Shown here: piece after piece, positions 4,311 through 62,456 of the stretch
Numbering within the stretch: position 1 is the first letter of the stretch
Layout of the letters: every line of letters begins with the position of its first letter
Assembly: GCA_043812655.1 (NCBI GenBank)
Contig: JBDRLW010000008.1
Location: 3,198 to 67,197 of the forward strand
Reading direction: 5' to 3'
From: a bacterium
GTDB taxonomy: Bacteria > Margulisbacteria > WOR-1 > O2-12-FULL-45-9 > XYB2-FULL-48-7
DNA: 64,000 nucleotides
Translations under genes and position numbers: made by a program
The notes under the pieces: generated by a model
What the model saw: only the letters and a program-made list of their open reading frames with translations
Databases searched by the model: none
What the model was told of the DNA's origin: nothing

Positions 4311-5965
4311 ACCGTAAAAACATCTTAATATTAATCGCTATGGCAGTTTGTTTATACTTTTTCAAACTCGGCAGTTTCTCATTGTACGACGCGGCGGAGA
4401 CGACTTACGGCGAATTCGTTAAAAACATGCTGGGGATGAAAGATTGGCTGACATTCCATTACAACGGACAGATAATCTTTGATAAGCCCCCGCTCTATTA
4501 TTGGTTCGCGGTCATCTTTTCTAAGTTGATCGGGTTCAATGAATGGGCCATGCGCCTCCCTGCTGCTATCTCCGGGCTCCTAACCGTAATCGTCACCTAT
4601 CTCCTCGGAAAAACATTTTACAATAAACAGGTTGGATTCCTTTCCGGCATAATTGTGATGACCGCTTTCCAATTTCTCGTCCAATCGCGGATCGCGGAAT
4701 TAGATGTTGTCCTCACCCTCCTTATGACGTCGGCAATTCTCTGTTTCTACTTGGGTTACACCAGCGGGGAGAAAAAATATTATACGTTAAGCTATGTCCC
4801 TATGGCCCTAGCCGTTTTGATCAAAGGGATCCTTGGCGTTGCCCTCCCCGGCTGCGCGATCTTTCTTTTTCTGTTGATCAAAGGAGAATTAAAGATCCTA
4901 AAAGAGATGCGGATCCTCTCTGGGATCGTAATCATCACCTTGATCGGCCTCCCCTGGTACCTGGCAGAATATCTCATTCATGGTCAAGTTTTTCTTGATT
5001 TTGCCTTGGGTTTTCTTTTCCTTTCCCGGTTCCAAGGCGCGGTTTGCGGCCATACCGGCCCTTGGTATTATTATTTCCTCGCTTTAATTTTAGGTTTTGC
5101 TCCCTGGTCGCAATTCATTCCGTTCGCTTTCTGGCGAGCATATAAAGAAGTTTCTTCTCCCAACTCCCAACTCCGAACTCCAATGCTTCTTTCCCTTTGC
5201 TTTGTTATCCCCGCCTTTATCGTCTTTTCGGTCGCTAAAACCAAGATACCTAACTACATCCTCCCCCTTTATCCTTTTCTGGCCATCATGGTGGGGAAGT
5301 TGTGGGCTGAAGTTTTATCGGAGCCTGAGAATAAATTCTCGGCTCCTCAAGAAAGCAAAACAAGAATTAATTCTCGTTTTGATAAAAATGGAACCGCGAA
5401 TTTATTCGCAGGTTCCTACGGAATAACATTATCCAACATCCTTTTTGCCGTTGTCATCGCCCTAATTTTCATTGGTTGTATCATGATCGCTAATTCCAAT
5501 TATCCAACACAATATATATCCCTACTCCCTAGCCTCTACACCCTAGCGGCTATCTTAGTCCTTGGCGGCGTGATCTCAATTACCGCTTATTTTCTAAAGA
5601 AATATACTCTTTCTTTTGCCGCTATCCCAACAATGGTTTTTATCATCACTTTGATCTTGACTGTCTGGGCCCTGCCCGAAGTTGAAAACTTTAAGGGAGC
5701 TAAAGAACTGGGAAAAGAATTAAATATTGTTATTAAACCAAATCAAATTATCGCCGCTTACAATGTCGGCAATCGCCCGAGTGTTGTTCTTCACAGCCCA
5801 AAGCCAGTTAAGTTCTTGGAGACCGAAAAGGAATTATCCGTTTATATTAATCATAAAAAAGGTTACGTGTTTACATTGGTTGAAGAATATGAAAAAATGA
5901 AGGAAAGATTGCCAGCCAGGACCAAGGTTTTGGCTAAAAAAGGCGACCTTTTAATATTATATTAA
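4307..5965 (+). CDS. GT83/PMT_2 family membrane glycosyltransferase (ArnT-like), paralog 1
   Basis: Polytopic membrane protein with N-terminal YDAAETTYGEFV...DKPPLYYWF, as in ArnT / dolichyl-phosphate-mannose transferases. Carries two in-frame repeat inserts (5159-5188 and 5321-5418). Confidence 0.7.
   Translation: MNRKNILILIAMAVCLYFFKLGSFSLYDAAETTYGEFVKNMLGMKDWLTFHYNGQIIFDKPPLYYWFAVIFSKLIGFNEWAMRLPAAISGLLTVIVTYLLGKTFYNKQVGFLSGIIVMTAFQFLVQSRIAELDVVLTLLMTSAILCFYLGYTSGEKKYYTLSYVPMALAVLIKGILGVALPGCAIFLFLLIKGELKILKEMRILSGIVIITLIGLPWYLAEYLIHGQVFLDFALGFLFLSRFQGAVCGHTGPWYYYFLALILGFAPWSQFIPFAFWRAYKEVSSPNSQLRTPMLLSLCFVIPAFIVFSVAKTKIPNYILPLYPFLAIMVGKLWAEVLSEPENKFSAPQESKTRINSRFDKNGTANLFAGSYGITLSNILFAVVIALIFIGCIMIANSNYPTQYISLLPSLYTLAAILVLGGVISITAYFLKKYTLSFAAIPTMVFIITLILTVWALPEVENFKGAKELGKELNIVIKPNQIIAAYNVGNRPSVVLHSPKPVKFLETEKELSVYINHKKGYVFTLVEEYEKMKERLPARTKVLAKKGDLLILY
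5159..5188. repeat. R3 repeat (tcttctcccaactcc-naactcc-naactcc) in frame in GT83 paralog 1
   Basis: Encodes SSPNSQLRTP. Confidence 0.7.
5321..5418. repeat. R5 double-hairpin repeat in frame in GT83 paralog 1
   Basis: GGAGCCtGAGAATaaaTTCTCGGCTCC...GGAACCGCGAATttaTTCGCAGGTTCC encodes SEPENKFSAPQESKTRINSRFDKNGTANLFAGS. Confidence 0.7.
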
Positions 5966-11066: not shown

Positions 11067-12044
11067 TCAGAGCACTTGGAATCTTTTTAAGGCTCGTTCT
11101 ATACCGCTGCGGAAATCAATAGTATATTTAAACCCCAGTTGTTTCAGTTTGGCCGGATCACCAGCTCGGGCAAAAACTCCCTCCGGCTTATCCGATGTCC
11201 CACGAACCTCCGGGGTAAAACCGCAGAGATCAGCGACAATTTTGGCAAAATCAATAAAACTCGTGTAAATCCCGGTCGCTAAATTGACGGCGCCGGCATC
11301 ATCTATTTTATCCATTGTCCTTAATATCCCTTCAACGCAATCTTCAATATGGATAAAATCGCGCCTTTGCCTTCCCGTCCCCCACACCGTAATAACCGGG
11401 GCGCCGCGATTGGCCAGGACCCGTTTGCAAATCGCCGGGAATGGGTAAGTATCATCTTGATCCTCCCCATATCCTGAAAAAGGACGATAAACAACAGACT
11501 TTAACCCATGTTTTTCATAAGCTAGCTTCGCCAGATATTCACAAGTCAATTTTGCCCAACCATAAGACATATCGGGCATGCCGATATCAAGGTCAAAGGC
11601 GATCATCTCTTCCTTTAACAGTTTATGATCTTTTTCTCTTTGGTGTTTGATCGGGTAAGCGGCGCTCGAACTGAAACAAAGGCTCTTTTTCGGCTTAGTC
11701 TTTACCGCCCATTGCCAGTATTCGGCATCGATCGACAGGTCATCGGCCACCGCCAGCGGATTATTCTCGATCATCAGCCGCCCCCCCACCATCGCCGCCA
11801 GGTGGAAACAATAGTCAAAATCGGTATCATCTACCCGGTTAAAATAATCCCGGCAATCTTCGTGGTAAAAATGGAAATTCTTGAAGTCTAGGGGGGAATA
11901 TAACGGCCATTTTTTCGGCAAAAGTCCACCAGTCAGCGGAGCAACTTTATCGACACAATGGACTTCATCGCCAAGCTCCAAAAGGCGCTTAACTACATTC
12001 CGGCCGACAAAACCGGCACCGCCGGTGACAAGGATTTTACGCAT
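11067..12044 (-). CDS. NAD-dependent epimerase/dehydratase (extended SDR; nucleotide-sugar modifying)
   Basis: N-terminal Rossmann GGAGFVGRNV, YxxxK region, about 325 aa. Confidence 0.75.
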   Translation of the reverse strand: MRKILVTGGAGFVGRNVVKRLLELGDEVHCVDKVAPLTGGLLPKKWPLYSPLDFKNFHFYHEDCRDYFNRVDDTDFDYCFHLAAMVGGRLMIENNPLAVADDLSIDAEYWQWAVKTKPKKSLCFSSSAAYPIKHQREKDHKLLKEEMIAFDLDIGMPDMSYGWAKLTCEYLAKLAYEKHGLKSVVYRPFSGYGEDQDDTYPFPAICKRVLANRGAPVITVWGTGRQRRDFIHIEDCVEGILRTMDKIDDAGAVNLATGIYTSFIDFAKIVADLCGFTPEVRGTSDKPEGVFARAGDPAKLKQLGFKYTIDFRSGIERALKRFQVL

Positions 12045-24255: not shown

Positions 24256-25629
24256 ATGAAAAAACTTATAATCATATTCTCACTCATTTTTCTTAGCCTG
24301 CCGGCTTTTGCCACGTTTGAATCGGAGGTAATGCAACAATTATGGGACGTCCCAACCAAGGAAGTGAGATCAGAGATCATCAAATCCTACAAAAGAGGTC
24401 CGATCCAAGTAAATGAGATCTACTATTTTAGCCGCTCTTACAAACGCCAGCCGGTTAAGATATTTGGTTACTATTCTTATCCTGTTAATCATAAAGGTAA
24501 ACTCCCAGCCATTCTCCTCTCCCATGGTGGCGGCGGTTCAGCTAGCCTCCCCCGCTGCTTAGCTTGGTCAAAATTAGGTTATGCTGTTTTAGCGATCGAC
24601 TTGCCAGGTAAGGGTGAAAATCGAGGACGGTCACGCTCCACCGGACCAGACATGATAGTAAAGAACCTGCTCAAGACCCAGCCTGATCCTAGCTACAATT
24701 ATCTAATTCACGCGGTGGCTGCGGCCAGAAATGGGATAACTTTTTTAGCGACCAGAAAAGAAGTTGATCCGGACCGGATCGGGATGATCGGCCTTTCCTG
24801 GGGAGGGGTCCTCACCCTATTAACCAATGGCCAAGATAATCGATTAAAAGCCGCGGTCAATGTTTTTGGCGCCGGCCACATTCCCGAAGGCTGCACCTGG
24901 GATGATTGGTTTAAGTCAATGCCAGCGGTTGACAAGAATATTTGGCAGAACAATCTTGACCCGAAGAATTTCCTGGCCACCCAACATGCTCCGATCTATT
25001 TTGTCTCTGGGACCAATGATCATTGTTATTACTTAACTACTTTCCAAAAGAGCTACCAAGAAGTAACTGCCGATAAGAATTATTATTTGGTCCCCAATCT
25101 GCGCCATAAATTCCTGGATTCCCTTAGCGTCCCCGCGCTGGCTTGGTTAAAGTCAAAATTAAAGACCGGAGGAAGTTTCCCCGGGATCACCGTCATGCCG
25201 ATCACCCAAGAAGCGGATAATATCGTGGTTAATGCTAGATCTAACGGCAATAAAGTCACTCTTTACTATTCGGTTGGCGGTCCGTCCGGTTTAACAACTA
25301 ACCGTTGGAAATCGCTTCAGCCAAAAAGGACCGGACTTTATTATTCTTTTACCATCCCGACAAAATTAATTAAGCCGGAGGTCATGTATTACGTCAGCGC
25401 AAATAATAAGGACGGGGCGGCTACCTCTTCACAAGTCCAAACTATTTTCAGTGTTAAATTAAAAGACGGGACCAAAACCTACGCTCAATCATCGCCGATC
25501 AAGAAGCTGTACCAGCACGAACCACCATTCACCTTTGTTAATGGCTATGTTAGCAGCACCATCCGCTTCCTGTTCGCAAAACAGGAACAGGTCTACAAAG
25601 CCTACAATTACGATTCTATTGCGAACTAA
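24256..25629 (+). CDS. Secreted alpha/beta hydrolase (acetyl-xylan-esterase / dienelactone-hydrolase-like) with a C-terminal beta-sandwich domain
   Basis: Signal peptide MKKLIIIFSLIFLSLPAFA, HGGGGSAS oxyanion region, nucleophile elbow GLSWGG. Confidence 0.55.
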   Translation: MKKLIIIFSLIFLSLPAFATFESEVMQQLWDVPTKEVRSEIIKSYKRGPIQVNEIYYFSRSYKRQPVKIFGYYSYPVNHKGKLPAILLSHGGGGSASLPRCLAWSKLGYAVLAIDLPGKGENRGRSRSTGPDMIVKNLLKTQPDPSYNYLIHAVAAARNGITFLATRKEVDPDRIGMIGLSWGGVLTLLTNGQDNRLKAAVNVFGAGHIPEGCTWDDWFKSMPAVDKNIWQNNLDPKNFLATQHAPIYFVSGTNDHCYYLTTFQKSYQEVTADKNYYLVPNLRHKFLDSLSVPALAWLKSKLKTGGSFPGITVMPITQEADNIVVNARSNGNKVTLYYSVGGPSGLTTNRWKSLQPKRTGLYYSFTIPTKLIKPEVMYYVSANNKDGAATSSQVQTIFSVKLKDGTKTYAQSSPIKKLYQHEPPFTFVNGYVSSTIRFLFAKQEQVYKAYNYDSIAN

Positions 25630-26521
25630 ATGGCTCTTTTTTTTTAAAATCCGGCAGATAAGCGTCACTGCTTGACAAGTGCTGGATATATATATTTTGA
25701 AACCCTTTGTCCTGGGCGTGATCGACAACTTTCTCATATTCAGCCGCCGTTAATTTTCGAGCTAACTCGGGAAATTCCTTCGCCCGGTGCTGCGGACTAT
25801 ACTGCGACATCAAGCTCAACCAAATCTCAGTTGAAATACCGGCCAAAAAATCCAAGACCTTAAAGCTATCAGCAATATTATTCGGTAAAACAAGGTGTCT
25901 CACTATCAACGCTCTTCTCCCAACTCCACACTCCCGACTCCTAACTACCTGCCCCCACATCTCCCTCACCCCAACCGTTACCGTCTCAACATAATTCTCT
26001 GCCCCAGAATATTTAAACGCGTTATCATTATCAAAATATTTAATATCCGGGAGGTAAATATCAACCAGGCCGTCAAGCCTTTGCAAAAGCTCCAGCGAAT
26101 CATAACCCCCGGTATTGTAGACGATCGGCAACTCCAACCCTTCTTTTTTGGCTAGCATCAAGGCGTCTATGACCTGTGCGCCATAATGCGTTGGTGAAAC
26201 CAGGTTTATATTTTCCGCTCCCCTGTCAGCCAGATCAAGCATTATTTTAACCAGCTCATTAATCGTCACCTCGCGGCCAAGTCCTTGCTGGCTAACTTGA
26301 TAATTCTGGCAATAAACGCATTTAAGCGAACAACCGGAAAAAAAGACCGTCCCCGACCCTCTTTGGCCAGAAATTTGCGGTTCTTCACCATGATGAAGAC
26401 AATAAGAGGCAACTTTAATCTTATCACCTGCCCCGCACTTTCCCCCAAACTGACTAACAAACTTACCAACTCCCCTCTCTACCCCGCACCGATGGCCGCA
26501 TAAATTGCATTTAGTCACCAT
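25616..26521 (-). CDS. Radical SAM protein, PflX family (pyruvate-formate-lyase-activase homologue)
   Basis: CNLCGHRCGV N-terminal cluster plus CSLKCVYCQN radical SAM motif. Carries an in-frame R3 repeat insert (25913-25945). Confidence 0.6.
   Translation of the reverse strand: MVTKCNLCGHRCGVERGVGKFVSQFGGKCGAGDKIKVASYCLHHGEEPQISGQRGSGTVFFSGCSLKCVYCQNYQVSQQGLGREVTINELVKIMLDLADRGAENINLVSPTHYGAQVIDALMLAKKEGLELPIVYNTGGYDSLELLQRLDGLVDIYLPDIKYFDNDNAFKYSGAENYVETVTVGVREMWGQVVRSRECGVGRRALIVRHLVLPNNIADSFKVLDFLAGISTEIWLSLMSQYSPQHRAKEFPELARKLTAAEYEKVVDHAQDKGFQNIYIQHLSSSDAYLPDFKKKEPFSSQ
25913..25945. repeat. R3 repeat in frame (opposite orientation) in the PflX-like radical SAM gene
   Basis: tcttctcccaactccacactcccgactcctaac, translated on the minus strand as VRSRECGVGRRA. 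Confidence 0.7.
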
Positions 26522-27663: not shown

Positions 27664-27762
27664 CCTCTCCCCGTCACTCACTTCGTTCGTGCCACCCCTC
27701 TCCATGAAATGGAGAGGGGAATGAATTCTCCGATGAAATCGGAGAAGAAAGGGGTGAGGGTG
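27664..27762. mobile_element. R1 MITE-like element (97 bp) with terminal inverted repeats
   Basis: ctccccgtcactcacttcgttcgtgccaCCCCTCTCCatgaaatGGAGAGGGGaatgaattctccgatgaaatcggagaagaaaGGGGTGAGGG. About 90% identical to the intragenic copy at 47989-48081. Confidence 0.75.
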
Positions 27763-27967: not shown

Positions 27968-28124
27968 ACCCTCACCCGCTAATGCTTAAGACTCCCCCCT
28001 CTCCCATAGGGAGAGGGTAACTCGCTTGTTTTATGTTTTATTTTTATACCCCCTCTACCTCCCTGCCTGCCGGCAGGCAGGTGGGAGAGGGGGTGCTATT
28101 GTTTGGCGTTGACGGGGGTGAGGG
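27968..28124. mobile_element. R1 composite element containing a nested R6 palindrome
   Basis: Runs accctcaccc...cccctctcccatagggagaggg...cctgcctgccggcaggcagg...gggggtgagggc, with TIR-like ends. Confidence 0.75.
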
Positions 28125-48465: not shown

Positions 48466-48591
48466 CCCTCACCCAGTACCGCTGAACCTTTCCCCCTCTC
48501 CCAAAGGGAGAGGGTAATTCCCTTTTCCTCTCCGCGTTTTACCTTCTCCCTCTGGGAGAAGGGGGCGTCTTTTGCGCCAGCGGATGAGGGC
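48466..48591. repeat. R1 composite element in the nfnA-nfnB intergenic space
   Basis: accctcaccc box, ccctctcccaaagggagaggg and ccttctccctctgggagaaggggg hairpins, gcgccagcggatgagggc box (reverse complement of the box at 18544). Confidence 0.8.
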
Positions 48592-50368: not shown

Positions 50369-51889
50369 TTAGTTTACTTTAATTTTATATTTTCCGATCT
50401 TATAACCCAACATCCTTTCGGTGATCCCCAGCGCTTTAGCCGCTTTACGCTGGCTTTTATATTTCCCAAGCGCTTTTTCGATCCGCTGTTTTTCGATCGC
50501 TTCAACGATCTGCGGGAGCGTCGCCCCTTCCGGCTGGATGTCTTCTTCTTTTTTGATCGAAATAGTGGCCGGCAAATATCGCGGCGTGATCACATCTTCA
50601 TCGCAGATCACGACCGCTCGCTCAATGATATTTTCCAGTTCCCGGACATTCCCGGGAAAATCGTATTTCACCAAAATATCTAGGGCCGCGCGGTTGAGCC
50701 CTTTTATTTTTTTCTTATTCTCCTTATTATATTTATGGACGAAATGGTCGGAGAGCAAGGGAACATCTTCGCTCCGTTCACGTAAAGGCGGTAGTATGAC
50801 GGGAAAAACATTGATCCGGTAATAAAGATCTTCCCGGAATTTGCCTTGTTTTACCATTTCGGTCAAGTTGCGGTGGGTCGCGCAAATTACCCGGACATTG
50901 ATCTTGATCGTTTCGTTGCCACCGAGACGCTCAAATTCTTTTTCCTGCAAGATCCGCAACAGTTTGACCTGGGTCGCTAAGGTCAAGTCGCCAATCTCAT
51001 CAAGGAAAAGCGTCCCTTCATTAGCCAATTCAAACCGCCCCTTCCGCCGCTCGGTCGCGCCGGTAAATGCCCCTTTTTCATAGCCAAAAAGTTCCGCTTC
51101 GAGCAAATTCTCCGGCAGCGCGGCGCAAGCGACTTTAATGAATGGTTTATCGGTCCGGCCGCTCGAGTAATGGATCGCCGACGCGACTAATTCTTTCCCG
51201 GTCCCCGATTCGCCAAGGAGCAGGACCGTCGCCTGGCTGTCAGCCACTTGCATCGCTGAAACCAACATCGTTTCCATGATCCGCGAACTGTACACTATAT
51301 TTCCAAACTGATATTTCCCTTTTAATTCCCGACGGAGTTTGATATTCTCCGAAACGACCGCCTGCTTATCAAGCAGCGCTAATTCCCTTACCCGCACCGC
51401 CTGCCCCACCATCGCCGCAATGATCGTTAAAAGCTTAATGTCTTCTTCGTAAGAAATATTCCCTTTAAAAAGATGGTCAACTGAAAGGGCGCCAATAGTT
51501 TTATTTCCCGCTTTGATCGGCACACAAAGGAAGGCAAATTTTCTCTCCTGCAAATTCCGCCGCGCCTGGGTCCGGTTCAAAAAAAGTGGGTCAGCTTCAA
51601 TATTTGGAATAACCATCGGTTCACCCGTCGCTACCACCCGGCCGGTGATCCCTTCGCCGATCTTATAGCGGCCCCGCTCTTTTTCTTCTTTTGTTAGCCC
51701 GTGCGCAACTTCGATCCGCAGTTCGTTAGTTCCAGGCGTGGTTAAAGTGATCGTCCCCCGCTCCATTTCCAGCGAATCGGCCAAAACCTTTAGGATCGAA
51801 TCAAGTGTTTCGGGCAGGTCAAGCGAAGTCGACAGCGCGGTACTAATATCAACTAAAACCTTAACTTTAATATCTCTGGTCGGACTCAT
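50369..51889 (-). CDS. GAF-domain sigma54-dependent transcriptional activator (NifA/NtrC family) with C-terminal Fis-type HTH
   Basis: N-terminal GAF domain, Walker A GESGTGKE, GAFTGA sigma54-contact motif, C-terminal HTH. Confidence 0.85.
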   Translation of the reverse strand: MSPTRDIKVKVLVDISTALSTSLDLPETLDSILKVLADSLEMERGTITLTTPGTNELRIEVAHGLTKEEKERGRYKIGEGITGRVVATGEPMVIPNIEADPLFLNRTQARRNLQERKFAFLCVPIKAGNKTIGALSVDHLFKGNISYEEDIKLLTIIAAMVGQAVRVRELALLDKQAVVSENIKLRRELKGKYQFGNIVYSSRIMETMLVSAMQVADSQATVLLLGESGTGKELVASAIHYSSGRTDKPFIKVACAALPENLLEAELFGYEKGAFTGATERRKGRFELANEGTLFLDEIGDLTLATQVKLLRILQEKEFERLGGNETIKINVRVICATHRNLTEMVKQGKFREDLYYRINVFPVILPPLRERSEDVPLLSDHFVHKYNKENKKKIKGLNRAALDILVKYDFPGNVRELENIIERAVVICDEDVITPRYLPATISIKKEEDIQPEGATLPQIVEAIEKQRIEKALGKYKSQRKAAKALGITERMLGYKIGKYKIKVN

Positions 51890-51912
51890 ACAATATTGTA
51901 TCCTTATACATT

Positions 51913-51941
51913 ATTGTAGCAAACAACACGCCGGGTAGCAA
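51913..51941 (-). promoter_or_regulatory. Sigma70-type promoter (TTGCTA-17-TACAAT) of the sigma54-activator operon; copy A of a duplicated promoter
   Basis: Minus strand reads TTGCTAcccggcgtgttgtttgcTACAAT. Its 17-bp spacer is nearly identical to the copy at 56082-56110. Confidence 0.5.
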
Positions 51942-51970
51942 TGTTTTGAAGGCTAGATTCTATTTTTTAA

Positions 51971-52417
51971 TTAAAGCCCATTATCCTTCCTAATCCTCTG
52001 GATATATTTGCGTTCAACAAGTTTGCTAGCCAACACTTTTTGGATAATATTTTTCAGCCGATCGGCCGATAAATTACCCAGGACATGAAGTTGATGAAGG
52101 TTATAATTATTTTGCAATTCTATAATATCTAATTCGAAAACACGATTTGGCTGGATATAGGTCTCCCTTTCAAACGCTCCTTCCTGGCCGGCCGCGATAC
52201 AAACATCATCGCCGCGATAATGGCGGTTATGGTCGTCAATCGGCGTTGTGGTTGCTATTGTTGCCAGAACTGTTCGCAAATCAGCCGCCGTCAAAATTAT
52301 CAAACGCTTAAAGTGGCTTTCGCCGTCTGGAAAATAAACCAGGGTTCGAATGACGCAACCAGGAGCCAGCCACTCCAGCAATGCCTTGTCAGTAACTTTT
52401 TTAGGCAGGTCAAGCAT
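51971..52417 (-). CDS. Hypothetical protein; candidate toxin partner of the Panacea-domain protein
   Basis: 148 aa, overlaps the upstream Panacea gene by 8 bp. No recognisable family from sequence. Confidence 0.3.
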   Translation of the reverse strand: MLDLPKKVTDKALLEWLAPGCVIRTLVYFPDGESHFKRLIILTAADLRTVLATIATTTPIDDHNRHYRGDDVCIAAGQEGAFERETYIQPNRVFELDIIELQNNYNLHQLHVLGNLSADRLKNIIQKVLASKLVERKYIQRIRKDNGL

Positions 52418-52967
52418 TTTTGGAGAAAAGGTGGGTCAGGGCTTTATTGTTGTCGCTGTCTTCTTTCAATATTTCAACCAAAGCCTTTTTCCTCTCTGCC
52501 GGTAATTCATCAATCATGTCATACGCTGATATTTCTCCATGTTCGCTGGCGTTTTGCCAGGAGTTTTCTTTGTGGCTGATATCAACCAAGCGGCTGGATG
52601 TATAACGGCCATACTCGTTAATGACTCTTTGGATAATTATTGTTTCTGATTCGGACAGCTCTTTTAAATCCGGCTTATTTTTGCATTTAATCGTCCGGTT
52701 TTTATCGCTGCCAATAATAAGATACCGCCGCAAATACGCCTCTTCTTCTTTAAACAGGTTGCCTCTTTCGTTAATAATATCCAAAACCTGGGAAGGGATC
52801 GGGCCAAGCGGCAATTTAAAATAGATATCGCCAGTAACAAATCTGCCATATTCGATTAAATGCAGTTTATCGATGTAATACAATAATTTACAGGCCTTTA
52901 ATTTATCAATTGGCCCAAGCTCATCAGCCAAACAGCCTAAAACCGCTACCACTTTTCTTATGTTCAT
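52410..52967 (-). CDS. Panacea-domain (DUF4065, SocA-like) protein; probable antitoxin
   Basis: KLLYYIDKLHLIEYGRFVTGDIYFKLPLGPIP matches the Panacea core (KLqKLLY...GPV). Confidence 0.55.
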   Translation of the reverse strand: MNIRKVVAVLGCLADELGPIDKLKACKLLYYIDKLHLIEYGRFVTGDIYFKLPLGPIPSQVLDIINERGNLFKEEEAYLRRYLIIGSDKNRTIKCKNKPDLKELSESETIIIQRVINEYGRYTSSRLVDISHKENSWQNASEHGEISAYDMIDELPAERKKALVEILKEDSDNNKALTHLFSKNA

Positions 52968-52979
52968 TGCCGCTCCCTC

Positions 52980-55900
52980 CTATTTTTTATTGTCATTATA
53001 GACCTTCATCCCTTCCTTCACCACCCCAACATTATCAATCTCCCCCATAATCCTATCCGTTTCAGTCAACGCCACAATAATCTTCTGATAATGCTCAATA
53101 TCGCTATTGGTTAATGTCCTTCCCTTGCGGTCTTTGAGCCATTTTTGCGCCGGCTGGTAGCCGCCAATATAGAAATGCCAGGCAACTTCCGGCACTTTGC
53201 CAAAATATTGGTCTTTATTAATAAAGACTTTGCCGTCTTTATAAGCTATCTTCTCAGTTGCATTGGTTCCAGCGACTGGATACGTCGTTATAAAGTTATT
53301 TACTTTGGGCGATTCAAGGAGGTGCAATGAGCGCAATTCTGTTCCAAGTTCGGCCAGAGCTTTAAATGTTTTAGCATCGTTAGGATACGGCACACGAGGA
53401 AAATCACTCTTCAAAAACTCTTTAAACTTTGTTCGATAAGCTGGCGAGTGTAAAACTGCGTAAATATAGTCAAGAATGTTTTCTGGGGAAACAGCACCTA
53501 TACTTTTTTCTATTTCATCAAGAACTTCCTTTTTAAAGTTTGGAGATTTACTTCCATCTTCTTTAAAAATATAAAGTGGAAAAACCTGTTCGCCTCCACG
53601 ATAAAAGCAATTAAGATCAACAATGCTATCTATAACAAAAGCAACATTCCATTCCATCGAACCGACAGCTTGTCCTTGACGCCCTACAGCAAGGCCTAAA
53701 TTATGCCCTTTTAGAAAATTAGTCATCAATTTAATTCTTGGCCGCCAAATCAATTTGCTATCAAAATATGTATATTGCCGGTCAAATGGCCGGTAGATAA
53801 TTGGAACAAGCTTGTCTTGTTCAAAAATAATATCCTTTTTGTTCCCTGCTATCCATTTAGAATAATTTTTCCCAAGGTCATATTGCTCATTCATTGTGCT
53901 TTCGGAAATATTTTCGGATAGATAGTTTTCAATTCGTCTACTTAATATATCCCTATCCATATTAATAATAAAACCATCACCTAAAGTAAACACACCGGTT
54001 GTGCTTTCCACAAAAAAATCATTCAAATTAAACCCTTGTTGATATTCCACTTCAAGCTTTCCCGACCCTTCCGAGGCAAAAACAAGATTTGGCTGGCGCG
54101 ATTCCAATTGTACCCATTCAGCTTTTCCCACTGAAAGATCATTAAGAAGTTTAAATTTATTTTCGCGATCACCCCAAATATCAAGTCGATATATTTTTGC
54201 GAGATCGCCTTTCTTTTTCTTCCCAGTTTTTACCGCCAACATAATTGCCACTCCCTGTTGTATGGCAAAGACATTTTCATCTTTACTCCCGTCTGGCGCA
54301 ACTTCTTTTTTCTTAGCGTTCCCGTGAAGATCAATAACATAAATAGAATCAAATGTATCCATAAGATGCCAGCGCATCCCACGAAAGGTCGGGTTATCCA
54401 AGTATCCATGATTGGTAATAAAACCAACAACACCCTCCCCGTTCTTCGCGATCATATCTTCAGCAAAGGCAATAAACTTTACATAATCATCATTAAGCCA
54501 ATGTTTCCGCTCTTGGAGTTTTTGCTTGCCTCCAGGCTCAACTTTATACTTAGCAACCAGGCTATTGGCATAATCTGTTTCATTTGAAGAAACACCAGAA
54601 TACGGCGGATTGCCGATCACTACCATGATCGGCATCTCGTTTTTGATCTTGCTTGCTTCCTTAGCTTCTTCGGCAATACTTTCGGCCAATCCAAAAGAAA
54701 ACATGGTTTGCTGGGCTTCGCCAGCTTCCAAAGAATTGGTCAGATAGATTCCCAACCGCCGATGAAATTTCCAAAAGCCGGTCTTCTTAAAAGCCAGGCT
54801 TAATTTCAAATGCGCGATCGTGTACGGAGTCATCATCAGTTCAAACCCGTGCAGTCGAGGTAAAAGGTCATTGTGGACATAAGCCGGCCAGCGCCCATCC
54901 TGCCCCTGCTTTTTAAGCCTGCCATAAATAAGATTGATCGCCGCGCTGATAAAGGTCCCTGTTCCCACCGCCGGATCAAGGATTTGCACCCGGTGCTTGT
55001 TGTTTGGCAGTTTTGAAGTGTCGGCTAAGCCGCCAGCTAAGCCAAACTCATTTTTCAGGATATGATCAACCGATCGGACGATAAAATTAACCACCGGCAA
55101 AGGAGTATAATATGCCCCCATCCTCTTGCGCAGTTCAGGATCGTATTCCCTTAGAAAATCCTCATAAAAATGGATAACAGGATCAGCATCCCTTAAATAA
55201 TCCTCAAGCAACTGTTTTATATTGGAATGCAGGAAAACAACACAAAGTTCATCAACAATATAGCTCAATCGCTTGTCAAAACTTGGTCCGGCAATGTGGT
55301 CAAAAAAATGCCGCAAAAATGGGTTTGAGGCTGGCACCAGGTCGCGCGCCTCCTGGCGGGAAAAAGTATCAGACGTTTCATCATAATAGCGGGCCACAAA
55401 CAGGCCATAGACTAGCGTTTGGGCGTACATGTCGGCAAATGATTCAAACGTCAGGTCATGGACCAGCATTTTCTTGATCGCTTCATACACCCTAACCAGC
55501 TCGCCATTTTTTTCCGACTCGAGCGTCAAATAATGCAGGATATTATCCCTGATCCTCTGCGCCTTGCCACCCATTATTTTAGCCAGGTGTTCGCCTGATT
55601 TTATCGGCTCTTTATGCGACTGGGCAAAATCCAGCAGTGTTTTCGCTGCGTGTTCGTAATTTTCCGGCAGTAGCGTGATCACGCGATCCTTTAGATCATA
55701 GGTCGCTATTTTTATGGATTCATTATAACGCTTGCCATTTCGATAAAAACGAAATTCCAAGTAATCGGTCAAAACCAGGTTAGCATAACCAAAATATCTG
55801 GCCATTTGCTCCGATTTTTCCACTTTATCCAAAGAGACGCCAATATCTTTTGTTTCTATATAAAGAATCGGCACTTCATTATATAAAATAAAATCCGGCC

Positions 55901-56069
55901 GGTTTCCCTCATTAGCCTTTGGGTCATTATCAATCCTTTTAACCTTAATAGATTCAAAAATCCCCTTCAGTAATATTTCAAAATCAGCGCGGTATCCCAT
56001 TTCGCTGGTTTCTTCATGCGAAAACTTTTCCGAGACTGATTTAAGGTATTTAGCTACTATTTCTTTCAT
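52980..56069 (-). CDS. MmeI-family Type IIL restriction-modification enzyme (single-chain PD-ExK nuclease + gamma-class N6-adenine MTase + TRD)
   Basis: N-terminal RPDFILYNEVPILYIETKD (D...ExK arranged as in MmeI), MTase motif I DPAVGTGTF, motif IV NPPY. 1029 aa. ATGA overlap with the upstream gene. Confidence 0.7.
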   Translation of the reverse strand: MKEIVAKYLKSVSEKFSHEETSEMGYRADFEILLKGIFESIKVKRIDNDPKANEGNRPDFILYNEVPILYIETKDIGVSLDKVEKSEQMARYFGYANLVLTDYLEFRFYRNGKRYNESIKIATYDLKDRVITLLPENYEHAAKTLLDFAQSHKEPIKSGEHLAKIMGGKAQRIRDNILHYLTLESEKNGELVRVYEAIKKMLVHDLTFESFADMYAQTLVYGLFVARYYDETSDTFSRQEARDLVPASNPFLRHFFDHIAGPSFDKRLSYIVDELCVVFLHSNIKQLLEDYLRDADPVIHFYEDFLREYDPELRKRMGAYYTPLPVVNFIVRSVDHILKNEFGLAGGLADTSKLPNNKHRVQILDPAVGTGTFISAAINLIYGRLKKQGQDGRWPAYVHNDLLPRLHGFELMMTPYTIAHLKLSLAFKKTGFWKFHRRLGIYLTNSLEAGEAQQTMFSFGLAESIAEEAKEASKIKNEMPIMVVIGNPPYSGVSSNETDYANSLVAKYKVEPGGKQKLQERKHWLNDDYVKFIAFAEDMIAKNGEGVVGFITNHGYLDNPTFRGMRWHLMDTFDSIYVIDLHGNAKKKEVAPDGSKDENVFAIQQGVAIMLAVKTGKKKKGDLAKIYRLDIWGDRENKFKLLNDLSVGKAEWVQLESRQPNLVFASEGSGKLEVEYQQGFNLNDFFVESTTGVFTLGDGFIINMDRDILSRRIENYLSENISESTMNEQYDLGKNYSKWIAGNKKDIIFEQDKLVPIIYRPFDRQYTYFDSKLIWRPRIKLMTNFLKGHNLGLAVGRQGQAVGSMEWNVAFVIDSIVDLNCFYRGGEQVFPLYIFKEDGSKSPNFKKEVLDEIEKSIGAVSPENILDYIYAVLHSPAYRTKFKEFLKSDFPRVPYPNDAKTFKALAELGTELRSLHLLESPKVNNFITTYPVAGTNATEKIAYKDGKVFINKDQYFGKVPEVAWHFYIGGYQPAQKWLKDRKGRTLTNSDIEHYQKIIVALTETDRIMGEIDNVGVVKEGMKVYNDNKK

Positions 56070-58570
56070 TTATCATTTAGACTATAGCAAACAACGCGCT
56101 GGGTGGCAATGTCGGAAAGCAGGATCAGCGGTTGTTTAGAAAAATCAAAGATCCGGACGACTCGGCGCAAGGCTTTGTCATCATGAAGTTCTTCTTTAGC
56201 CAAAGAAGGGTTCAGTTTAAAACCGTTAAACAGGGCCAGATAGAATATTTGGGCTTCGACCAGGTCAAGAAAAAAGTGCGAGCCAAAAGAGAGTTCCGGC
56301 ATAAAACCACTTTCGGGCTCCGCCACTTCAACCAGAGCGGCAAAATTATTGATCTCGGCAAAACTGACCGGGACACCCAGTGTCGCGTCCTTTGTCCCCC
56401 AGCGGCCGGGACCAATCAGCATTGTCGGATGTTTTTTTCTGTCTTTAATTTCCCTGTTAAGCCGGCCGATCAATCTAGCTACGGTAAATTTTTTATTATA
56501 CAAAAGCTTGGCATATTCCCTAGTATCGATATAAATAACCTTGTTAATTGGCTGGGAGACATTCCCCCCCATAAAATTACCTGTCGTTTCAATCAATGAG
56601 TTTTCCGGCTTGATCTTCCCCGGCATTTTTACCGGGAGGTTTGGCCCCTTCGCCTGGAGCGGTCGGCATTGCAGAACATTGACCTGCAGTTTTCCTGCTC
56701 GATTATAATTAGCGGTAAACTCAACATCGACCGGATATTCATAGACCGCTTCCAGCCGCGCCAGCATCTGCTGAAGGCTAACGGCGAATTCTGTTTTGGA
56801 CAAAAGCTGGTCAAAAGTCAAAAACAGGAAATCTTGCTTACTTCTCTGCGCGATCAATTCCAAGTTAATGGCTGGCTCTTCGGTTAAAAGTTGTGACAGC
56901 GGCAATGAAATTAATTCGTTTTTTTCTATATCGAGCAGGTCAACTTCGTGCTGGGAAAACTTAAGTTTGTCTTCCACCCCGGCATACGGCTGTAAAAGCG
57001 GTTTATCAAGCGCTACAACTCGGGGATAGTCCCCTTCAACCCGGTTGACCGCCCTGGTCCCCAAACCAAAAACCAGACGAAGCATCCCCGCTTTTGGGTC
57101 CATTTCTTGATTCCAAACAAAAGTATTGTAAGAAACCCCTACCCCGGCTAAAAATGGAAAAAAATATTTTTGATACTGCGTCCCAGAAACGCGCTGGACC
57201 AAAAGAGCCATCTGCTCGTCTTGCAGGCCCAAACCCCTCTGCTGCCGATAGGTTAGCGCATCTTCATTCATCGTGCTGGCAAAGACTTCCCTGACCGTCC
57301 GTTCATAATTGACGTAGCGCTCATCCAGGCTACCCTGATTAACGCAAAAAATACTCTCATACTTCCCGGCAAAGGCGTTGCCAAACCCGTCTTCCAATAA
57401 ACTGGAAGAACGGATAATGATCGGCGACTGGCCATAATATTCCAGGAGTTGGTTGAATTGTTCCCTGATCTCATCAGGAAAATTTCCCGTTAGAAGTTTT
57501 TCTTTTAAGTCGGCCGCTTTGGCAAAAAAGCCCTCGGTTGTTTTTTGCTCCAGCCAGAGGTCCCACCAGCCATTTTGGACAATGTAAGAATAAAAAACAT
57601 CGGAACCGATATAAAAAGAATCATGCGCTTCCAGTTTTTCTTCCCAATTGGCCAGGATCTTACGCGCCAGGAGCATCCCCACCGCTTTTCCCCCGATATA
57701 GCCGGTGCCGATCATCCGGTTTTTGATCGCGATCAAATCTTCCAAGGCAAAATATTTTTTGACCAAAGAGAGCATCCGCTCTTCCCGTCCGACCATGATC
57801 CGTAATAACTGGTCAACCATTTTATTTTTTTCTTCCTCGGCCGCTTCAGTCTTGGTCAGCTCCTCCGCCTTAATAAATAGCCTGTCCCAATAATCAAGGT
57901 TCCGCTCGGCCGTTTCCGCCCCCTTGGCCGACATATAAGCTAAAAGCCGGGCTGCGTCGACACTGCTGGTCAGCGGCAAATATTTTTCCCCTTCCGCGAT
58001 ATGGGGCAAGAACATCGTCGGCGAATAGCGGTTCCAGACTTTTAAGGGATGAAGATAATACTTCCCTTCAAAGCTATAAACATCAAGTAAAAGCTGGGTC
58101 GTTTCCCTGATCCGGGCAATGGTTTTATAAGAATGATTATTCCGTAAAATGGCAAAATAAGCCAAAGTATTTAATTTAAAAAGATAGGGGCAAGTGACCA
58201 TGAAAAAGTTCCCGATCATGAGGTCTGTCGCCCAGGCAAAAAGCAGATCGGATAAACAATCAAAAAGATAAAAAGCCCCATCCCCTTCCAGTGTGATGAT
58301 CTCGTGAACCTCTTTGGAAAAGGATTCAAACCCGACCGTCGCGTCAAGATCATAAGTCTTTACGTCTTTTATTAGCGGCGGATGGCTGGCAAAGCGGATA
58401 TAAATGATCTTGCGCCCGTCTTTTTTAGCTTGTTCAATATAAGGCCTTACAAAATAGAGATAATCCTCAATACGGTCAACCTGCCAAACAACATTATCCC
58501 CCTTCCTTAAACCCTGAAGGATGTTGTCAAGCCCATTCACTCCGGAACTGACAAAATTTATCGTCTTCAT
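56066..58570 (-). CDS. Large protein with a degenerate KaiC/RecA-like N-terminal domain and a PEP-utilising-enzyme ATP-grasp (PPDK_N-type) nucleotide-binding domain; no phospho-His swivel domain
   Basis: IIRSSSLLEDGFGNAFAGKYES matches the PpsA/PPDK N-domain (VAVRSSATAEDLPxASFAGQ). GGKAVGMLLARKIL and a C-terminal VDVEFT...LQCRP fit the ATP-grasp. The N-terminal SSGVNGLDNILQGL resembles a KaiC/RadA fold but has no P-loop. Confidence 0.5.
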   Translation of the reverse strand: MKTINFVSSGVNGLDNILQGLRKGDNVVWQVDRIEDYLYFVRPYIEQAKKDGRKIIYIRFASHPPLIKDVKTYDLDATVGFESFSKEVHEIITLEGDGAFYLFDCLSDLLFAWATDLMIGNFFMVTCPYLFKLNTLAYFAILRNNHSYKTIARIRETTQLLLDVYSFEGKYYLHPLKVWNRYSPTMFLPHIAEGEKYLPLTSSVDAARLLAYMSAKGAETAERNLDYWDRLFIKAEELTKTEAAEEEKNKMVDQLLRIMVGREERMLSLVKKYFALEDLIAIKNRMIGTGYIGGKAVGMLLARKILANWEEKLEAHDSFYIGSDVFYSYIVQNGWWDLWLEQKTTEGFFAKAADLKEKLLTGNFPDEIREQFNQLLEYYGQSPIIIRSSSLLEDGFGNAFAGKYESIFCVNQGSLDERYVNYERTVREVFASTMNEDALTYRQQRGLGLQDEQMALLVQRVSGTQYQKYFFPFLAGVGVSYNTFVWNQEMDPKAGMLRLVFGLGTRAVNRVEGDYPRVVALDKPLLQPYAGVEDKLKFSQHEVDLLDIEKNELISLPLSQLLTEEPAINLELIAQRSKQDFLFLTFDQLLSKTEFAVSLQQMLARLEAVYEYPVDVEFTANYNRAGKLQVNVLQCRPLQAKGPNLPVKMPGKIKPENSLIETTGNFMGGNVSQPINKVIYIDTREYAKLLYNKKFTVARLIGRLNREIKDRKKHPTMLIGPGRWGTKDATLGVPVSFAEINNFAALVEVAEPESGFMPELSFGSHFFLDLVEAQIFYLALFNGFKLNPSLAKEELHDDKALRRVVRIFDFSKQPLILLSDIATQRVVCYSLNDK
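56082..56110 (-). promoter_or_regulatory. Internal sigma70-type promoter (TTGCCA-17-TATAGT) for the Type IIL gene; copy B of the duplicated promoter
   Basis: Minus strand reads TTGCCAcccagcgcgttgtttgcTATAGT. It lies inside the 3' end of the 837-aa gene, 13 nt upstream of the RM enzyme ATG. Confidence 0.5.
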
Positions 58571-59547
58571 AAATCCCAAAAACTGATTAATTTATCATAA
58601 TCAATGATCGAAACCAAGGCTTTGCTTTCTGTCACTATGCCAGATTCTTCGGCGGCGGCGACCGGATTAAGCCCTCCTGGAATTACTATCCCCACCCGTT
58701 CGAGGCCAACCGGTACGCCAAGGATCGTTTGGCCGGCTTTGCCGATCATAATCGCTTTGCCTAAGCCGGCCGATTCTGCCCGGCGCAAGATCGCCTCGGC
58801 TTCATCGCGCGAAGCCGCCGGGATCTCCCTTAAGCTGGCCAATATTTTCCCCTTGCCAAGGCAGGCGGCACTGACGCTGGTCATCCGGCTCTTTAAAAAT
58901 ATTTCGTGCGGATCAAGCGTTGAACCGGTGTAATTGATAATATCGGTAAAACGGAGCGGCCGTTCATCTTCGATCTGCAGGATCCCGCCAAATCTTGATT
59001 CGATCGGAATGGAATGCTTGGTCAATATCCCATTTAGGTTGATACTGCAGAGCGTGCCAAAGGCCACTTGCCCGGGCGGAACAATTATCCCGCCAATTTT
59101 TTCGCCTTCAGGTACGACCACCACGAGTTCACCGGTCGCAAAGCCGCTTTTGAAAACTTGAGCCATAACTCCCAAGGCCTTTTTAAAGTCTTTTTTCTGG
59201 AAAAAAGAGAGATTTAAGATCACTCCGCCCGATTTATTTTCAAGGTCAAAATCCATTTTATACGCCATCGTCTCAATACGTGAGCTCATAAAGCCAACTT
59301 TATCAAAAACCAGCGCGTCCCCTAACTCTTCCAGCCCTTTACTGGTGATCATCCGCCCCTCCTTCCAAATTACTTTGGTTAAACCACGCTCGTTCATCAC
59401 TTTTAAATGATAGCGGACCGCCCTCTCCGAAAGTTCAATCCCATGATCTTTCAATTTTTTGGCTATGTCAGCCGAACCGATCGGCTCGCTCTTCTGTGAA
59501 ATTATCCGCAAGATCGCGTTGATCTTCCTGTCTAAGTCCGTCGTCAT
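58567..59547 (-). CDS. NrpR-like regulator (N-terminal winged HTH + DUF128 nitrogen-regulatory domain)
   Basis: IISQKSEPIGSADIAKKL...RAVRYHLKVMNERGL wHTH followed by one roughly 230-aa domain. Divergent from gdhA. Start trimmed to the ATG at 59547. Confidence 0.45.
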   Translation of the reverse strand: MTTDLDRKINAILRIISQKSEPIGSADIAKKLKDHGIELSERAVRYHLKVMNERGLTKVIWKEGRMITSKGLEELGDALVFDKVGFMSSRIETMAYKMDFDLENKSGGVILNLSFFQKKDFKKALGVMAQVFKSGFATGELVVVVPEGEKIGGIIVPPGQVAFGTLCSINLNGILTKHSIPIESRFGGILQIEDERPLRFTDIINYTGSTLDPHEIFLKSRMTSVSAACLGKGKILASLREIPAASRDEAEAILRRAESAGLGKAIMIGKAGQTILGVPVGLERVGIVIPGGLNPVAAAEESGIVTESKALVSIIDYDKLISFWDL

Positions 59548-59569
59548 AACGAGAATATTATAACATGGA

Positions 59570-59599
59570 TTGACATACGGCAATAGGTTGCCGTATAAT
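59570..59599 (+). promoter_or_regulatory. Consensus sigma70 promoter of gdhA with a perfect 9-bp inverted-repeat operator in the spacer
   Basis: TTGACA-18 nt-TATAAT. The spacer and -10 contain ATACGGCAAtaggTTGCCGTAT (59575-59596). AAGGAGG SD precedes the gdhA ATG. Confidence 0.6.
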
Positions 59600-59643: not shown

Positions 59644-61008
<1,365 letters not shown>

Positions 61009-61097: not shown

Positions 61098-61736
61098 TTA
61101 GAAGAACGCCATCCTGGCTCCAGCGGCTAGGATAAAGCCATCGAGCGGCAATGAATTACCGCTGCTATCCTTAATGCTGGTCCGCAAATAATTGATCTGG
61201 GCAAAAGCTCCGGTATCTGGGCCAAGGCCAAATTCGATCCCTGTCCCGATCTGGGCGCCAAATCCGGCAAAACTTGAAGGGGAATTAAGTTTAACTTCGC
61301 TGGATTTATTGGCTGTATAGTAGTTGGCTTCGGCATCCAAATAAAGATTGGCGATACCATGGGCGCTGGAATCCCCCCAACTAAGAACATACATTCTAGC
61401 TCCATAGCCAAACCTTAAAATTGAATAAGTCGCGTTAAGCGTGGTCCCCTGGTCATTATTAAATGACGATAGGCCAAATCTAGGTCCAGTATCTAAGTTC
61501 TGGTTTAATCTAGCGTCGAACTCAAGCCCAAGATCATACGCTGTAGTTTTTGTCGCCAAAACATCCCTGTTGGGAGAGATCATACTTAACCTTACCCCCA
61601 ATCTATAGGACTTTTTCTGAGACATCGCCAATAGATCTTTCGTTGAAACCGTGCTTGTCCCTTCGATCGCGTAAGCCGGAACTATCGCCGCTAAACTTAA
61701 AACAAAAACCGCCAACAAAGTAAGGACCTTTTTCAT
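61098..61736 (-). CDS. Small outer-membrane beta-barrel protein (OmpW/OmpA-like), tandem paralog 1
   Basis: Signal peptide and C-terminal ...ARMAFF aromatic terminus. About 50% identical to the neighbouring paralog. Confidence 0.5.
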   Translation of the reverse strand: MKKVLTLLAVFVLSLAAIVPAYAIEGTSTVSTKDLLAMSQKKSYRLGVRLSMISPNRDVLATKTTAYDLGLEFDARLNQNLDTGPRFGLSSFNNDQGTTLNATYSILRFGYGARMYVLSWGDSSAHGIANLYLDAEANYYTANKSSEVKLNSPSSFAGFGAQIGTGIEFGLGPDTGAFAQINYLRTSIKDSSGNSLPLDGFILAAGARMAFF

Positions 61737-61802: not shown

Positions 61803-62456
61803 TTAGAAAAAGGCCATCCTGCTGCCAACCGTCAAAACTAAGCCGTCAAGAGGCAAAGTATGACTGCTTATGTCGTTTATGCTGGTGCGCAAATAATCGA
61901 TCTGGGCAAAAGCTCCGGTATTCGGCCCGAAAGTAAACTCAAGCCCCACCCCCGCTTGAACCCCAAGCCCGGCAAAACTGGCAGGGGAAATAGCCAGCGC
62001 GGTTGAGTCTTTGATCTTATTAGCGGCAAAATAATTAACTTCCCCGGCAAAATAGAGGTTAGCAAACCCATGAAGACTGGAATGGTCGCTCCAGTTAATA
62101 GCATAAAGCTTGGCGCCATAACCAAACCTGATGATCTGATATGAAGCATTTAGCGTTGTTCCCTGGTCATTGACACAAGAGGCAATACCAAACCGCGGGC
62201 CGGTATCAAGATTTTCATTGAACTTAAAATCAAATGCAAGCCCAATGTCATAAGCAGGGATCTTGGTCGCCAATATATCGCTAGCCGGAGAGATCATGCT
62301 GACTTTAACCCCTAATCCAAGATTTTTTCTTTGGGCTAATGTTAATAATTCTTTTGTTGAAACTGTAGTTGTCCCTTCAAGCGCATAAACAGGGACAAGA
62401 CTTATTCCTCCTAAAATAAAAATAGTAAGGGAACACAACCAAAAATACTTTCTCAT
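61803..62456 (-). CDS. Small outer-membrane beta-barrel protein, tandem paralog 2
   Basis: Signal peptide and C-terminal ...SRMAFF. Paralogous to 61098-61736. Confidence 0.5.
   Translation of the reverse strand: MRKYFWLCSLTIFILGGISLVPVYALEGTTTVSTKELLTLAQRKNLGLGVKVSMISPASDILATKIPAYDIGLAFDFKFNENLDTGPRFGIASCVNDQGTTLNASYQIIRFGYGAKLYAINWSDHSSLHGFANLYFAGEVNYFAANKIKDSTALAISPASFAGLGVQAGVGLEFTFGPNTGAFAQIDYLRTSINDISSHTLPLDGLVLTVGSRMAFF

Follow-up and report, generated by a model that had tools for sequence, protein, structure and literature searches.

A defence block flanked by a direct repeat of a host gene end: probable insertion with long target duplication behind a PPDK_N gene in a WOR-1 bacterium

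A stretch of 64 kb from a WOR-1 bacterium of the Margulisbacteria (GenBank assembly GCA_043812655.1, contig JBDRLW010000008.1, positions 3,198 to 67,197; hereafter the window) carries two similar promoter-like sequences on its minus strand, one in front of a gene for a NifA-like sigma54 activator and the other at the 3' end of a gene with a PPDK_N (phosphoenolpyruvate/pyruvate-binding) domain. These sequences are most probably (probability about 0.8) the two copies of a target duplication of the PPDK_N gene end, made when an acquired defence block of about 4.1 kb entered between the two genes. The block holds a gene for a Type IIG restriction-modification (RM) enzyme, a Panacea/SocA antitoxin gene and a gene for a partner protein of 148 amino acids (aa). 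The original prediction had described the same pair of sequences as a duplicated sigma70-type promoter with a near-identical 17-bp spacer, which would drive both the activator operon and the RM gene and whose spacer might be a shared operator. On its coding content, the copy at the PPDK_N junction (copy 2) is the presumptive working end of that gene, and the copy beside the activator gene (copy 1) a presumptive displaced, non-coding relic. The coordinates of all features are collected in Table 1.

The repeat is direct, ungapped and 32 nt long, and its copies are identical at 27 of 32 positions (core 32-mer ACATTGCYACCCRGCGYGTTGTTTGCTAYART). They lie 4168 nt apart, start to start, and bracket the three defence genes and nothing else. 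Within them, the promoter-like hexamers read TTGCTA-17-TACAAT in copy 1 (51941-51913) and TTGCCA-17-TATAGT in copy 2 (56109-56081), and the similarity between the copies reaches 3 nt further upstream than the hexamers. Both sequences thus exist on the minus strand as originally predicted, copy 1 exactly at the predicted position; copy 2 had been given with the right sequence and coordinates off by one. The near-identity of the spacers stands, at 15 rather than 14 of 17 positions, as does the location of copy 2 within the last 15 codons of the upstream open reading frame. From the end of the second hexamer of copy 2 to the RM ATG the distance is 11 nt, where 13 nt had been counted.

Chance alone would give about 0.008 direct pairs of 27/32 or better in 64 kb, and shuffled sequence gave no match at the level of this repeat; it is therefore real. 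Other pairs at 27/32 or better in an all-against-all scan of the window look like repeat families or paralogues and not like chance matches. Sigma70-like sites are frequent locally, with 36 found in 12.5 kb against 20 expected from shuffles, so that passing a sigma70 consensus scan carries little weight. This abundance is what a chance likeness of two AT-rich promoter-like sequences would draw on, but such an explanation is effectively refuted by the expectation given above, by the five mismatches, all of which are transitions, by the in-frame fit of copy 1 to a protein motif, and by the position of both copies at the edges of an insert that synteny defines independently. A search of the window for further copies, which had been proposed as a check and was run allowing up to three mismatches, returned the two copies and no third. 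A scan of viral contigs yielded no copy of the repeat, and an Rfam E-value scan of 51700-56300 together with a tRNA scan gave no match. RNA folding around copy 1 detected no structure (z -0.8). At the PPDK_N 3' end, a hairpin formed by AAACAACCGCTG and CAGCGCGTTGTTT (56090-56134, minus strand) has its right arm within copy 2; it scored z -3.2 against shuffles, and no counterpart was seen in the related locus L012.

The repeat is best understood as coding sequence. In the PPDK_N frame, copy 2 reads LLSDIATQRVVCYSLNDK followed by the stop codon (also given as SDIATQRVVCYSLNDK and as DIATQRVVCYSLNDK, each with the stop), and copy 1 in the corresponding frame reads IATRRVVCYNNV followed by a stop. 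A motif LLSD[IV]xxQ[RK]VVC lies near the C-terminus of all 120 PPDK_N homologues listed, mostly with two or three residues after it. Its Gln was found by pattern count in 119 of these 120, and the exception, P0068 (SDIATQQVILTKM; SDIATQQV), also has Gln on inspection. The 17-nt spacer corresponds to the codons for A-T-Q-R-V-V-C of this motif, which makes coding homology, that is, common descent of the gene end, and not an operator the likely reason for the similarity of the spacers. Three of the five mismatches between the copies are synonymous (GCC/GCT, CGC/CGT and TAT/TAC). One of the two non-synonymous changes replaces the conserved Gln by Arg in copy 1, while copy 2 retains it, as would be expected if copy 1 is a displaced gene end that is no longer translated.

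Beyond the 32-nt core, copy 1 runs on as AATGTATAA to 51904, including a relic stop codon TAA, and copy 2 as CTAAATGATAA to 56070, directly abutting the RM ATG. Given one 3-nt and one 1-nt indel these stretches also match, which would bring the repeat to 41/43 nt. In gapped extension, a strict alignment halts at 28 nt and a loose one is not distinguishable from shuffles. What was duplicated would be the final 10-13 codons of the PPDK_N gene, with its stop codon probably included. With the extension, the last 13 codons and the stop would have been duplicated, and the insertion point would fall exactly between the PPDK_N stop and GGATACAAT.

The uninterrupted arrangement is found in four related loci (L002, L012, L020 and L021), in which NrpR-like and PPDK_N genes are followed, after a gap of 42-49 nt, by the NifA-like gene. 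None of them carries the RM and toxin-antitoxin (TA) block, and each has a single PPDK_N 3' end before the NifA-like gene. A glutamate dehydrogenase (GDH) gene lies upstream of NrpR in L002, L012 and L021; the L020 contig begins at NrpR. Copy 1, together with the sequence that follows it, can be aligned with these relatives' gene end, with their intergenic elements and dyads, and with their start codon, and the NifA-like activators of L012 and L002 are 74% identical to that of the window. The nearest relatives are Candidatus Margulisiibacteriota metagenome-assembled genomes and metagenome contigs. Pairing of the NrpR-like and PPDK_N genes is also kept more widely, in L001, L002, L005, L012-L014, L020 and L021.

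The block itself, from the RM start codon to 26 nt (51970-51945) beyond the stop codon of the 148-aa gene, looks foreign, as judged from its low GC content, from the occurrence of RM homologues in several phyla and varied contexts, and from the recurrence of the TA module. Its GC content is 0.412, against 0.458 for the window, and falls within the lowest 5% of 4.1-kb windows; at third codon positions the block genes have 0.41-0.45 and the flanking genes 0.51-0.55. Homologues of the RM enzyme with 60-76% identity occur in Patescibacteria, Actinobacteria, Saganbacteria and Atribacteria, where the neighbouring genes vary (a HEPN gene, an AAA ATPase, a tyrosine integrase, other Panacea pairs). A plasmid search with the insert returned distant matches to the methyltransferase core and no others. 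Neither Pfam matches nor PADLOC revealed an integrase or transposase in the block or among the neighbouring genes scanned. Further out, the scanned genes have nitrogen or housekeeping functions (GltD/Nfn-like, NAD synthase, Amt, MacB-like) or no Pfam match.

Two modules of independent origin appear to be joined in the block. The 148-aa protein belongs to a small family with five full-length homologues of 46-73% identity, and in all three surroundings read (P0242, P0243 and P0245; L016-L019), each a different context, the homologue directly follows a Panacea gene. The protein is probably the toxin, hitherto undescribed, of a PanA-type TA pair. The antitoxin and 148-aa pair recurs as a unit whose neighbour is KdpC in one case, an N6_N4 methyltransferase in another and a different MmeI-like RM gene in a third. 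DNA homology to L019 extends from 52991 to 51979, which indicates that the TA module reaches from the stop codon of the RM gene to its own. The possibility that the RM gene and the Panacea gene form one conserved cassette was rejected: the Panacea protein beside the RM homologue of L010/L011 is only 34% identical and its partner is unrelated. In L015 the neighbours of the RM homologue are unrelated. These contexts indicate that the RM and TA modules are independent.

Insertion of restriction-modification units with long target duplication was reportedly described by Nobusato and colleagues in 2000, and Kobayashi's group has worked on this class of event, which the present case fits by analogy. 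In the later survey (Furuta, Abe and Kobayashi, 2010; PMC2853133), such units are inserted between direct repeats of more than 30 bp and carry no mobility genes. All RM types, Type IIG included, are represented among the cases. Often the start or stop codon of the target gene lies within the repeats, so that the gene stays intact, and insertion into operon-like gene rows is recorded. The criteria taken from that survey (Furuta et al., 2010; PMC2853133) were RM functions, an insert of less than 20 kb without mobility genes, repeats of more than 30 bp, a related empty site holding the sequence in single copy, and absence of the repeat from the rest of the genome. The insert in the window has RM functions in a single polypeptide with Type_ISP_C, N6_Mtase and Eco57I domains, and it spans about 4.1 kb and three genes without a mobility gene. 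The repeats, at 32 nt, are just over the threshold. Related empty sites with the sequence present once are found at the level of codons and gene order (L002, L012, L020 and L021, all distant relatives). As in the cases of the survey, repeats longer than 30 bp span a stop codon, the target is left intact and the row is operon-like. The published cases rest on same-species comparisons and nearly identical repeats (e.g. 44-47 of 46-47 bp), whereas the window has repeats of 84% identity and is compared with empty sites in distant relatives. The fusion of the RM ATG to the duplicated segment (ATGA) is likewise a feature not seen in the part of the published description at hand.

A comparable arrangement occurs in L007, where a 71%-identical RM homologue lies in a block of about 6 kb that also holds an AAA_15/21 ATPase gene and two small genes. 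This block has 34-nt direct repeats, 31/34 identical, at 5707-5740 and 11775-11808, and the repeated sequence is a terminator-like hairpin. Here, in a second case, a gene of this RM family may have been inserted with long target duplication, and the duplicated hairpin hints that this mode of insertion recurs in the family and that host expression signals are copied with it.

Several points weigh against a long target duplication. The ungapped repeat of 32 nt is barely above the 30-bp criterion, and the extension to 41/43 nt requires two indels in a short, AT-rich stretch and is statistically inseparable from chance. For copies that began as identical, 16% is a high divergence; it implies that the event is old or that the repeats, like att sites, were never an exact match. 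The search for further repeat copies covered just 64 kb of sequence. Searches of genomes, metagenomes and proteins gave a PPDK_N homologue of 70% identity as the nearest, and the relatives with empty sites have 64-70% identity in protein; gene order and codons are therefore the only levels at which the empty site is visible.

The main rival to a target duplication is site-specific integration, in which the repeats would be attL and attR of an island that a tyrosine or serine recombinase had inserted into the PPDK_N 3' end, with an attP carrying the replacement gene end and a recombinase that was lost or acted in trans. Integrase-borne islands typically enter the 3' ends of genes and restore the reading frame. 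The window resembles them in that imperfect repeats flank foreign DNA, one copy restoring the 3' end and a relic lying at the far end; a match of 27/32 also suits attP/attB pairs, which never match fully, and one RM homologue (P0123, locus L009) directly follows a Phage_integrase gene. No recombinase gene was found, however, either in the insert of 4.1 kb or in the neighbouring genes covered by the Pfam scan, and the insert holds nothing besides three defence genes. The longest exact run common to both copies, GTTGTTTGCTA, has 11 nt, which is compatible with an att core without demonstrating one, and no longer core is shared. The repeat is also absent from the RM gene and the TA pair in the other contexts examined. 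Site-specific integration is accordingly considered unlikely. As in defence islands or hotspots, RM and TA modules of different origins are packed here between conserved housekeeping genes, and both modules adjoin other defence genes in other genomes; a recurrent hotspot cannot be shown from a single genome. Integron-like promoterless cassettes offer a further parallel, as the RM gene seemingly came without upstream DNA of its own and relies on host signals, but no attC-like structure, IntI or attI was found. An attC at the distal end was considered and rejected, since the 26 nt between the last stop codon and copy 1 leave no room for it.

It is very unlikely that the repeat is a duplicated functional sigma70 promoter whose spacer serves as an operator shared by the RM gene and the sigma54-activator operon. 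Both copies do match the -35 and -10 consensus with 17-nt spacing (9/12 and 10/12 in the scan) and have a TG one base before the -10, and the TATAGT of copy 2 lies at a distance from the RM ATG that suits the start sites of the window. The spacer, however, encodes the family-wide protein motif, contains no dyad symmetry or inverted repeat and has no other copy in the window. Orthologous DNA in the four relatives is conserved at the codon level only and varies at synonymous positions, and the sigma70-like element is not conserved at the orthologous position. Inspection of the repeat by eye disclosed no sigma54 promoter, NifA upstream activating sequence (TGT-N10-ACA), NtcA site (GTA-N8-TAC) or NrpR site (GGAA-N6-TTCC). 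The proposal of a shared operator is thus not borne out.

Nor do the hexamers of copy 1 appear to be the native promoter of the activator gene, as had been supposed. The four relatives drive it from a different consensus promoter (TTGACA/TTGACG-17/18-TATAAT/TACAAT), which is intergenic and ends 10-12 nt before the ATG. The conserved operator-like elements of the region are two TACA-N4-TGTA dyads, which occur twice in the window and nowhere else in it (0.24 expected) and are both conserved in five loci (the window, L012, L020, L021 and L002). In the relatives, the promoter spacer contains site A, site B falls between the -10 and the ATG, and the dyads look like repressor operators, for which they are candidates. 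The -10-like TACAAT of copy 1 (51918-51913) is the left half of site A and aligns inside the promoter spacer of the relatives. The lineage of the window is without the 26-28 nt or so that bear the tail codons, stop codon and -35 of the relatives. Candidates for the activator promoter in the window are TTGCTA-17-TACAAT, TTGCTA-16-TACAAT ending at 51895, and read-through. Copy 1 stays joined to the conserved dyads of the activator. Site A is lost from copy 2, so that any promoter there would be unlikely to come under the control that acts on the activator.

The original prediction also held that the RM gene is near-leaderless and expressed separately from its upstream partner. Homologue N-termini confirm the RM ATG as the start codon. 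It overlaps the stop codon of the PPDK_N gene (ATGA), and the NrpR-like and PPDK_N genes are coupled in the same way. A scan for terminator-like sites gave none where the PPDK_N gene meets the RM gene and none in the interval from the 148-aa gene to copy 1. The overlap and the lack of a terminator-like site at the junction favour co-transcription and translational coupling of the RM gene and argue against its independent expression, and read-through with coupling is at least as likely as separate expression. The RM gene has no Shine-Dalgarno sequence, and its closest homologue has an unrelated leader that carries one. The RM gene's own upstream DNA appears not to have come along, and, having none that is detectable, the gene would depend on host signals.

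One such signal may be copy 2 itself. A -10-like box lies 3-13 nt upstream of the start codon in 13 of 47 genes in the window, against a background of 6%, and several of these boxes are TGnTATAAT. At 11 nt from the RM ATG, TGcTATAGT is therefore in keeping with the promoter style of the region. Many first genes (for example at 9675, 24256, 25616-26521, 26546 and 58567-59547) have a TGnTATAAT-type box 5-11 nt before the start and no Shine-Dalgarno sequence. This pattern suggests that leaderless or very-short-leader mRNAs are common in the source organism, and it is plausible that copy 2 may act as a short-leader promoter. RM expression would then proceed by read-through from the NrpR-PPDK_N operon with ATGA coupling, from TTGCCA-17-TGcTATAGT as a short-leader promoter, or from both. 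It is conceivable, if rather doubtful, that the duplicated end has split its roles, with copy 2 supplying the PPDK_N C-terminus together with a near-leaderless extended -10 promoter and/or coupling site for a bare RM open reading frame, and copy 1 remaining with the activator dyads. The suggestion that the block captured a host promoter on insertion came close in spirit: host sequence was captured, since the copies bracket a foreign RM and TA insert and the RM ATG abuts the duplicated segment.

Table 1. Features of the insertion locus in the window and gap lengths at the empty sites of relatives.
Feature	Position	Strand	Remarks
NifA-like sigma54 activator gene (GAF-AAA-HTH)	50369-51889	-	Original downstream neighbour of the PPDK_N gene
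TACA-N4-TGTA dyads	51889-51918	-	Site A 51907-51918; site B 51889-51900 (TACAATATTGTA, overlaps ATG); putative native upstream control region of the NifA-like gene
Copy 1 of direct repeat	51913-51944	-	Presumptive displaced relic of the PPDK_N 3' end, outside any gene
Defence block, about 4.1 kb	51945-56069	-	RM gene, PanA-type antitoxin and partner; absent from four syntenic relatives
148-aa partner of Panacea antitoxin	51971-52417	-	Putative toxin, no known domain; 8-nt overlap with antitoxin gene
SocA/Panacea-domain antitoxin, 185 aa	52410-52967	-	Strong Shine-Dalgarno sequence AGGAGGGAG in front
Type IIG (MmeI/Type IIL-like) RM enzyme, 1029 aa	52980-56069	-	Single polypeptide; Pfam as in text; PADLOC REase_MTase_IIG, E=5e-292
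Copy 2 of direct repeat	56081-56112	-	Presumptive working 3' end of the PPDK_N gene, codons D-I-A-T-Q-R-V-V-C-Y-S
PPDK_N domain gene	56066-58579	-	Probable insertion target; translationally coupled to NrpR-like gene upstream (overlapping stop/start)
NrpR-like regulator gene	58567-59583	-	Upstream of PPDK_N gene
Glutamate dehydrogenase gene	59680-61008		Divergent from NrpR-like gene
L002 empty site			PPDK_N to NifA-like gap 42 nt
L012 empty site			PPDK_N to NifA-like gap 44 nt
L020 empty site			PPDK_N to NifA-like gap 43 nt
L021 empty site			PPDK_N to NifA-like gap 49 nt

Other features of the window were recorded alongside. The PPDK_N-domain protein has about 840 aa, its gene is usually joined by overlap to the NrpR-like gene, and GDH is a conserved neighbour of the pair. 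Members of the family number in the thousands and come from Margulisiibacteriota, Saganbacteria, Syntrophales and others; two homologues (P0002 and P0003) are of double length, about 1460 aa. The GDH promoter region (59570-59599, plus strand) has a perfect TTGACA-18-TATAAT, whose spacer holds the dyad ACGGCAA-N4-TTGCCGT (59578-59593). The eight related GDH/NrpR divergent regions that were examined (the window, L001, L002, L005, L012, L013, L014 and L021) all share a conserved block TTGAC[AT]TACGGCAA-N4-TTGCCGTATAAT, with a slight variant in L002; the window has one perfect site of the dyad and no others. The archaeal NrpR operator is GGAA-N6-TTCC, and the outer GG..CC spacing of the dyad equals that of this operator. 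By analogy, the dyad is a candidate operator for the bacterial NrpR-like protein.

Two tandem paralogous genes on the minus strand (61098-61736 and 61803-62456) share DNA stretches that are 31/32 identical, and the second matches an outer-membrane beta-barrel domain. Intergenic repeat families were seen at about 7531, 18559, 27983-27995, 48482-48540 and 63701, and also at 27669/47995 and 17863/46144; two pairs of exact 32-mers occur as well. One of these families is a palindromic CCCCTCTCCCAWAGGGAGAGGG element that is also present in the intergenic DNA of L001 and L014.

The sequence of events proposed here is that a horizontally acquired block of a Type IIG RM gene, a Panacea/SocA antitoxin gene and its 148-aa partner was inserted right behind the PPDK_N gene, copy 2 completing the PPDK_N frame and copy 1 being left as a non-coding relic beside the dyads of the activator. 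As a known mode of RM gene movement, the case is tidy but ordinary. It adds an example of RM and TA genes entering a conserved row of nitrogen-regulation genes with the host gene end and the control region of the neighbour preserved, and it illustrates how an insertion scar can be mistaken for a regulatory duplication when a sequence is read by itself. The practical gain is a cleaner annotation, with the boundaries of the insert, a relic pseudo-3'-end and candidate operators elsewhere in the locus. If copy 2 fires as a promoter, it would show how a defence gene without signals of its own gains expression. If the duplicated end has indeed split its roles, RM expression would be wired into the nitrogen-regulatory operon of the NrpR-like and PPDK_N genes. 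Should this RM family generally spread by duplications that copy host signals, the duplication would be a means of expression for promoterless defence genes and not a by-product of their insertion.

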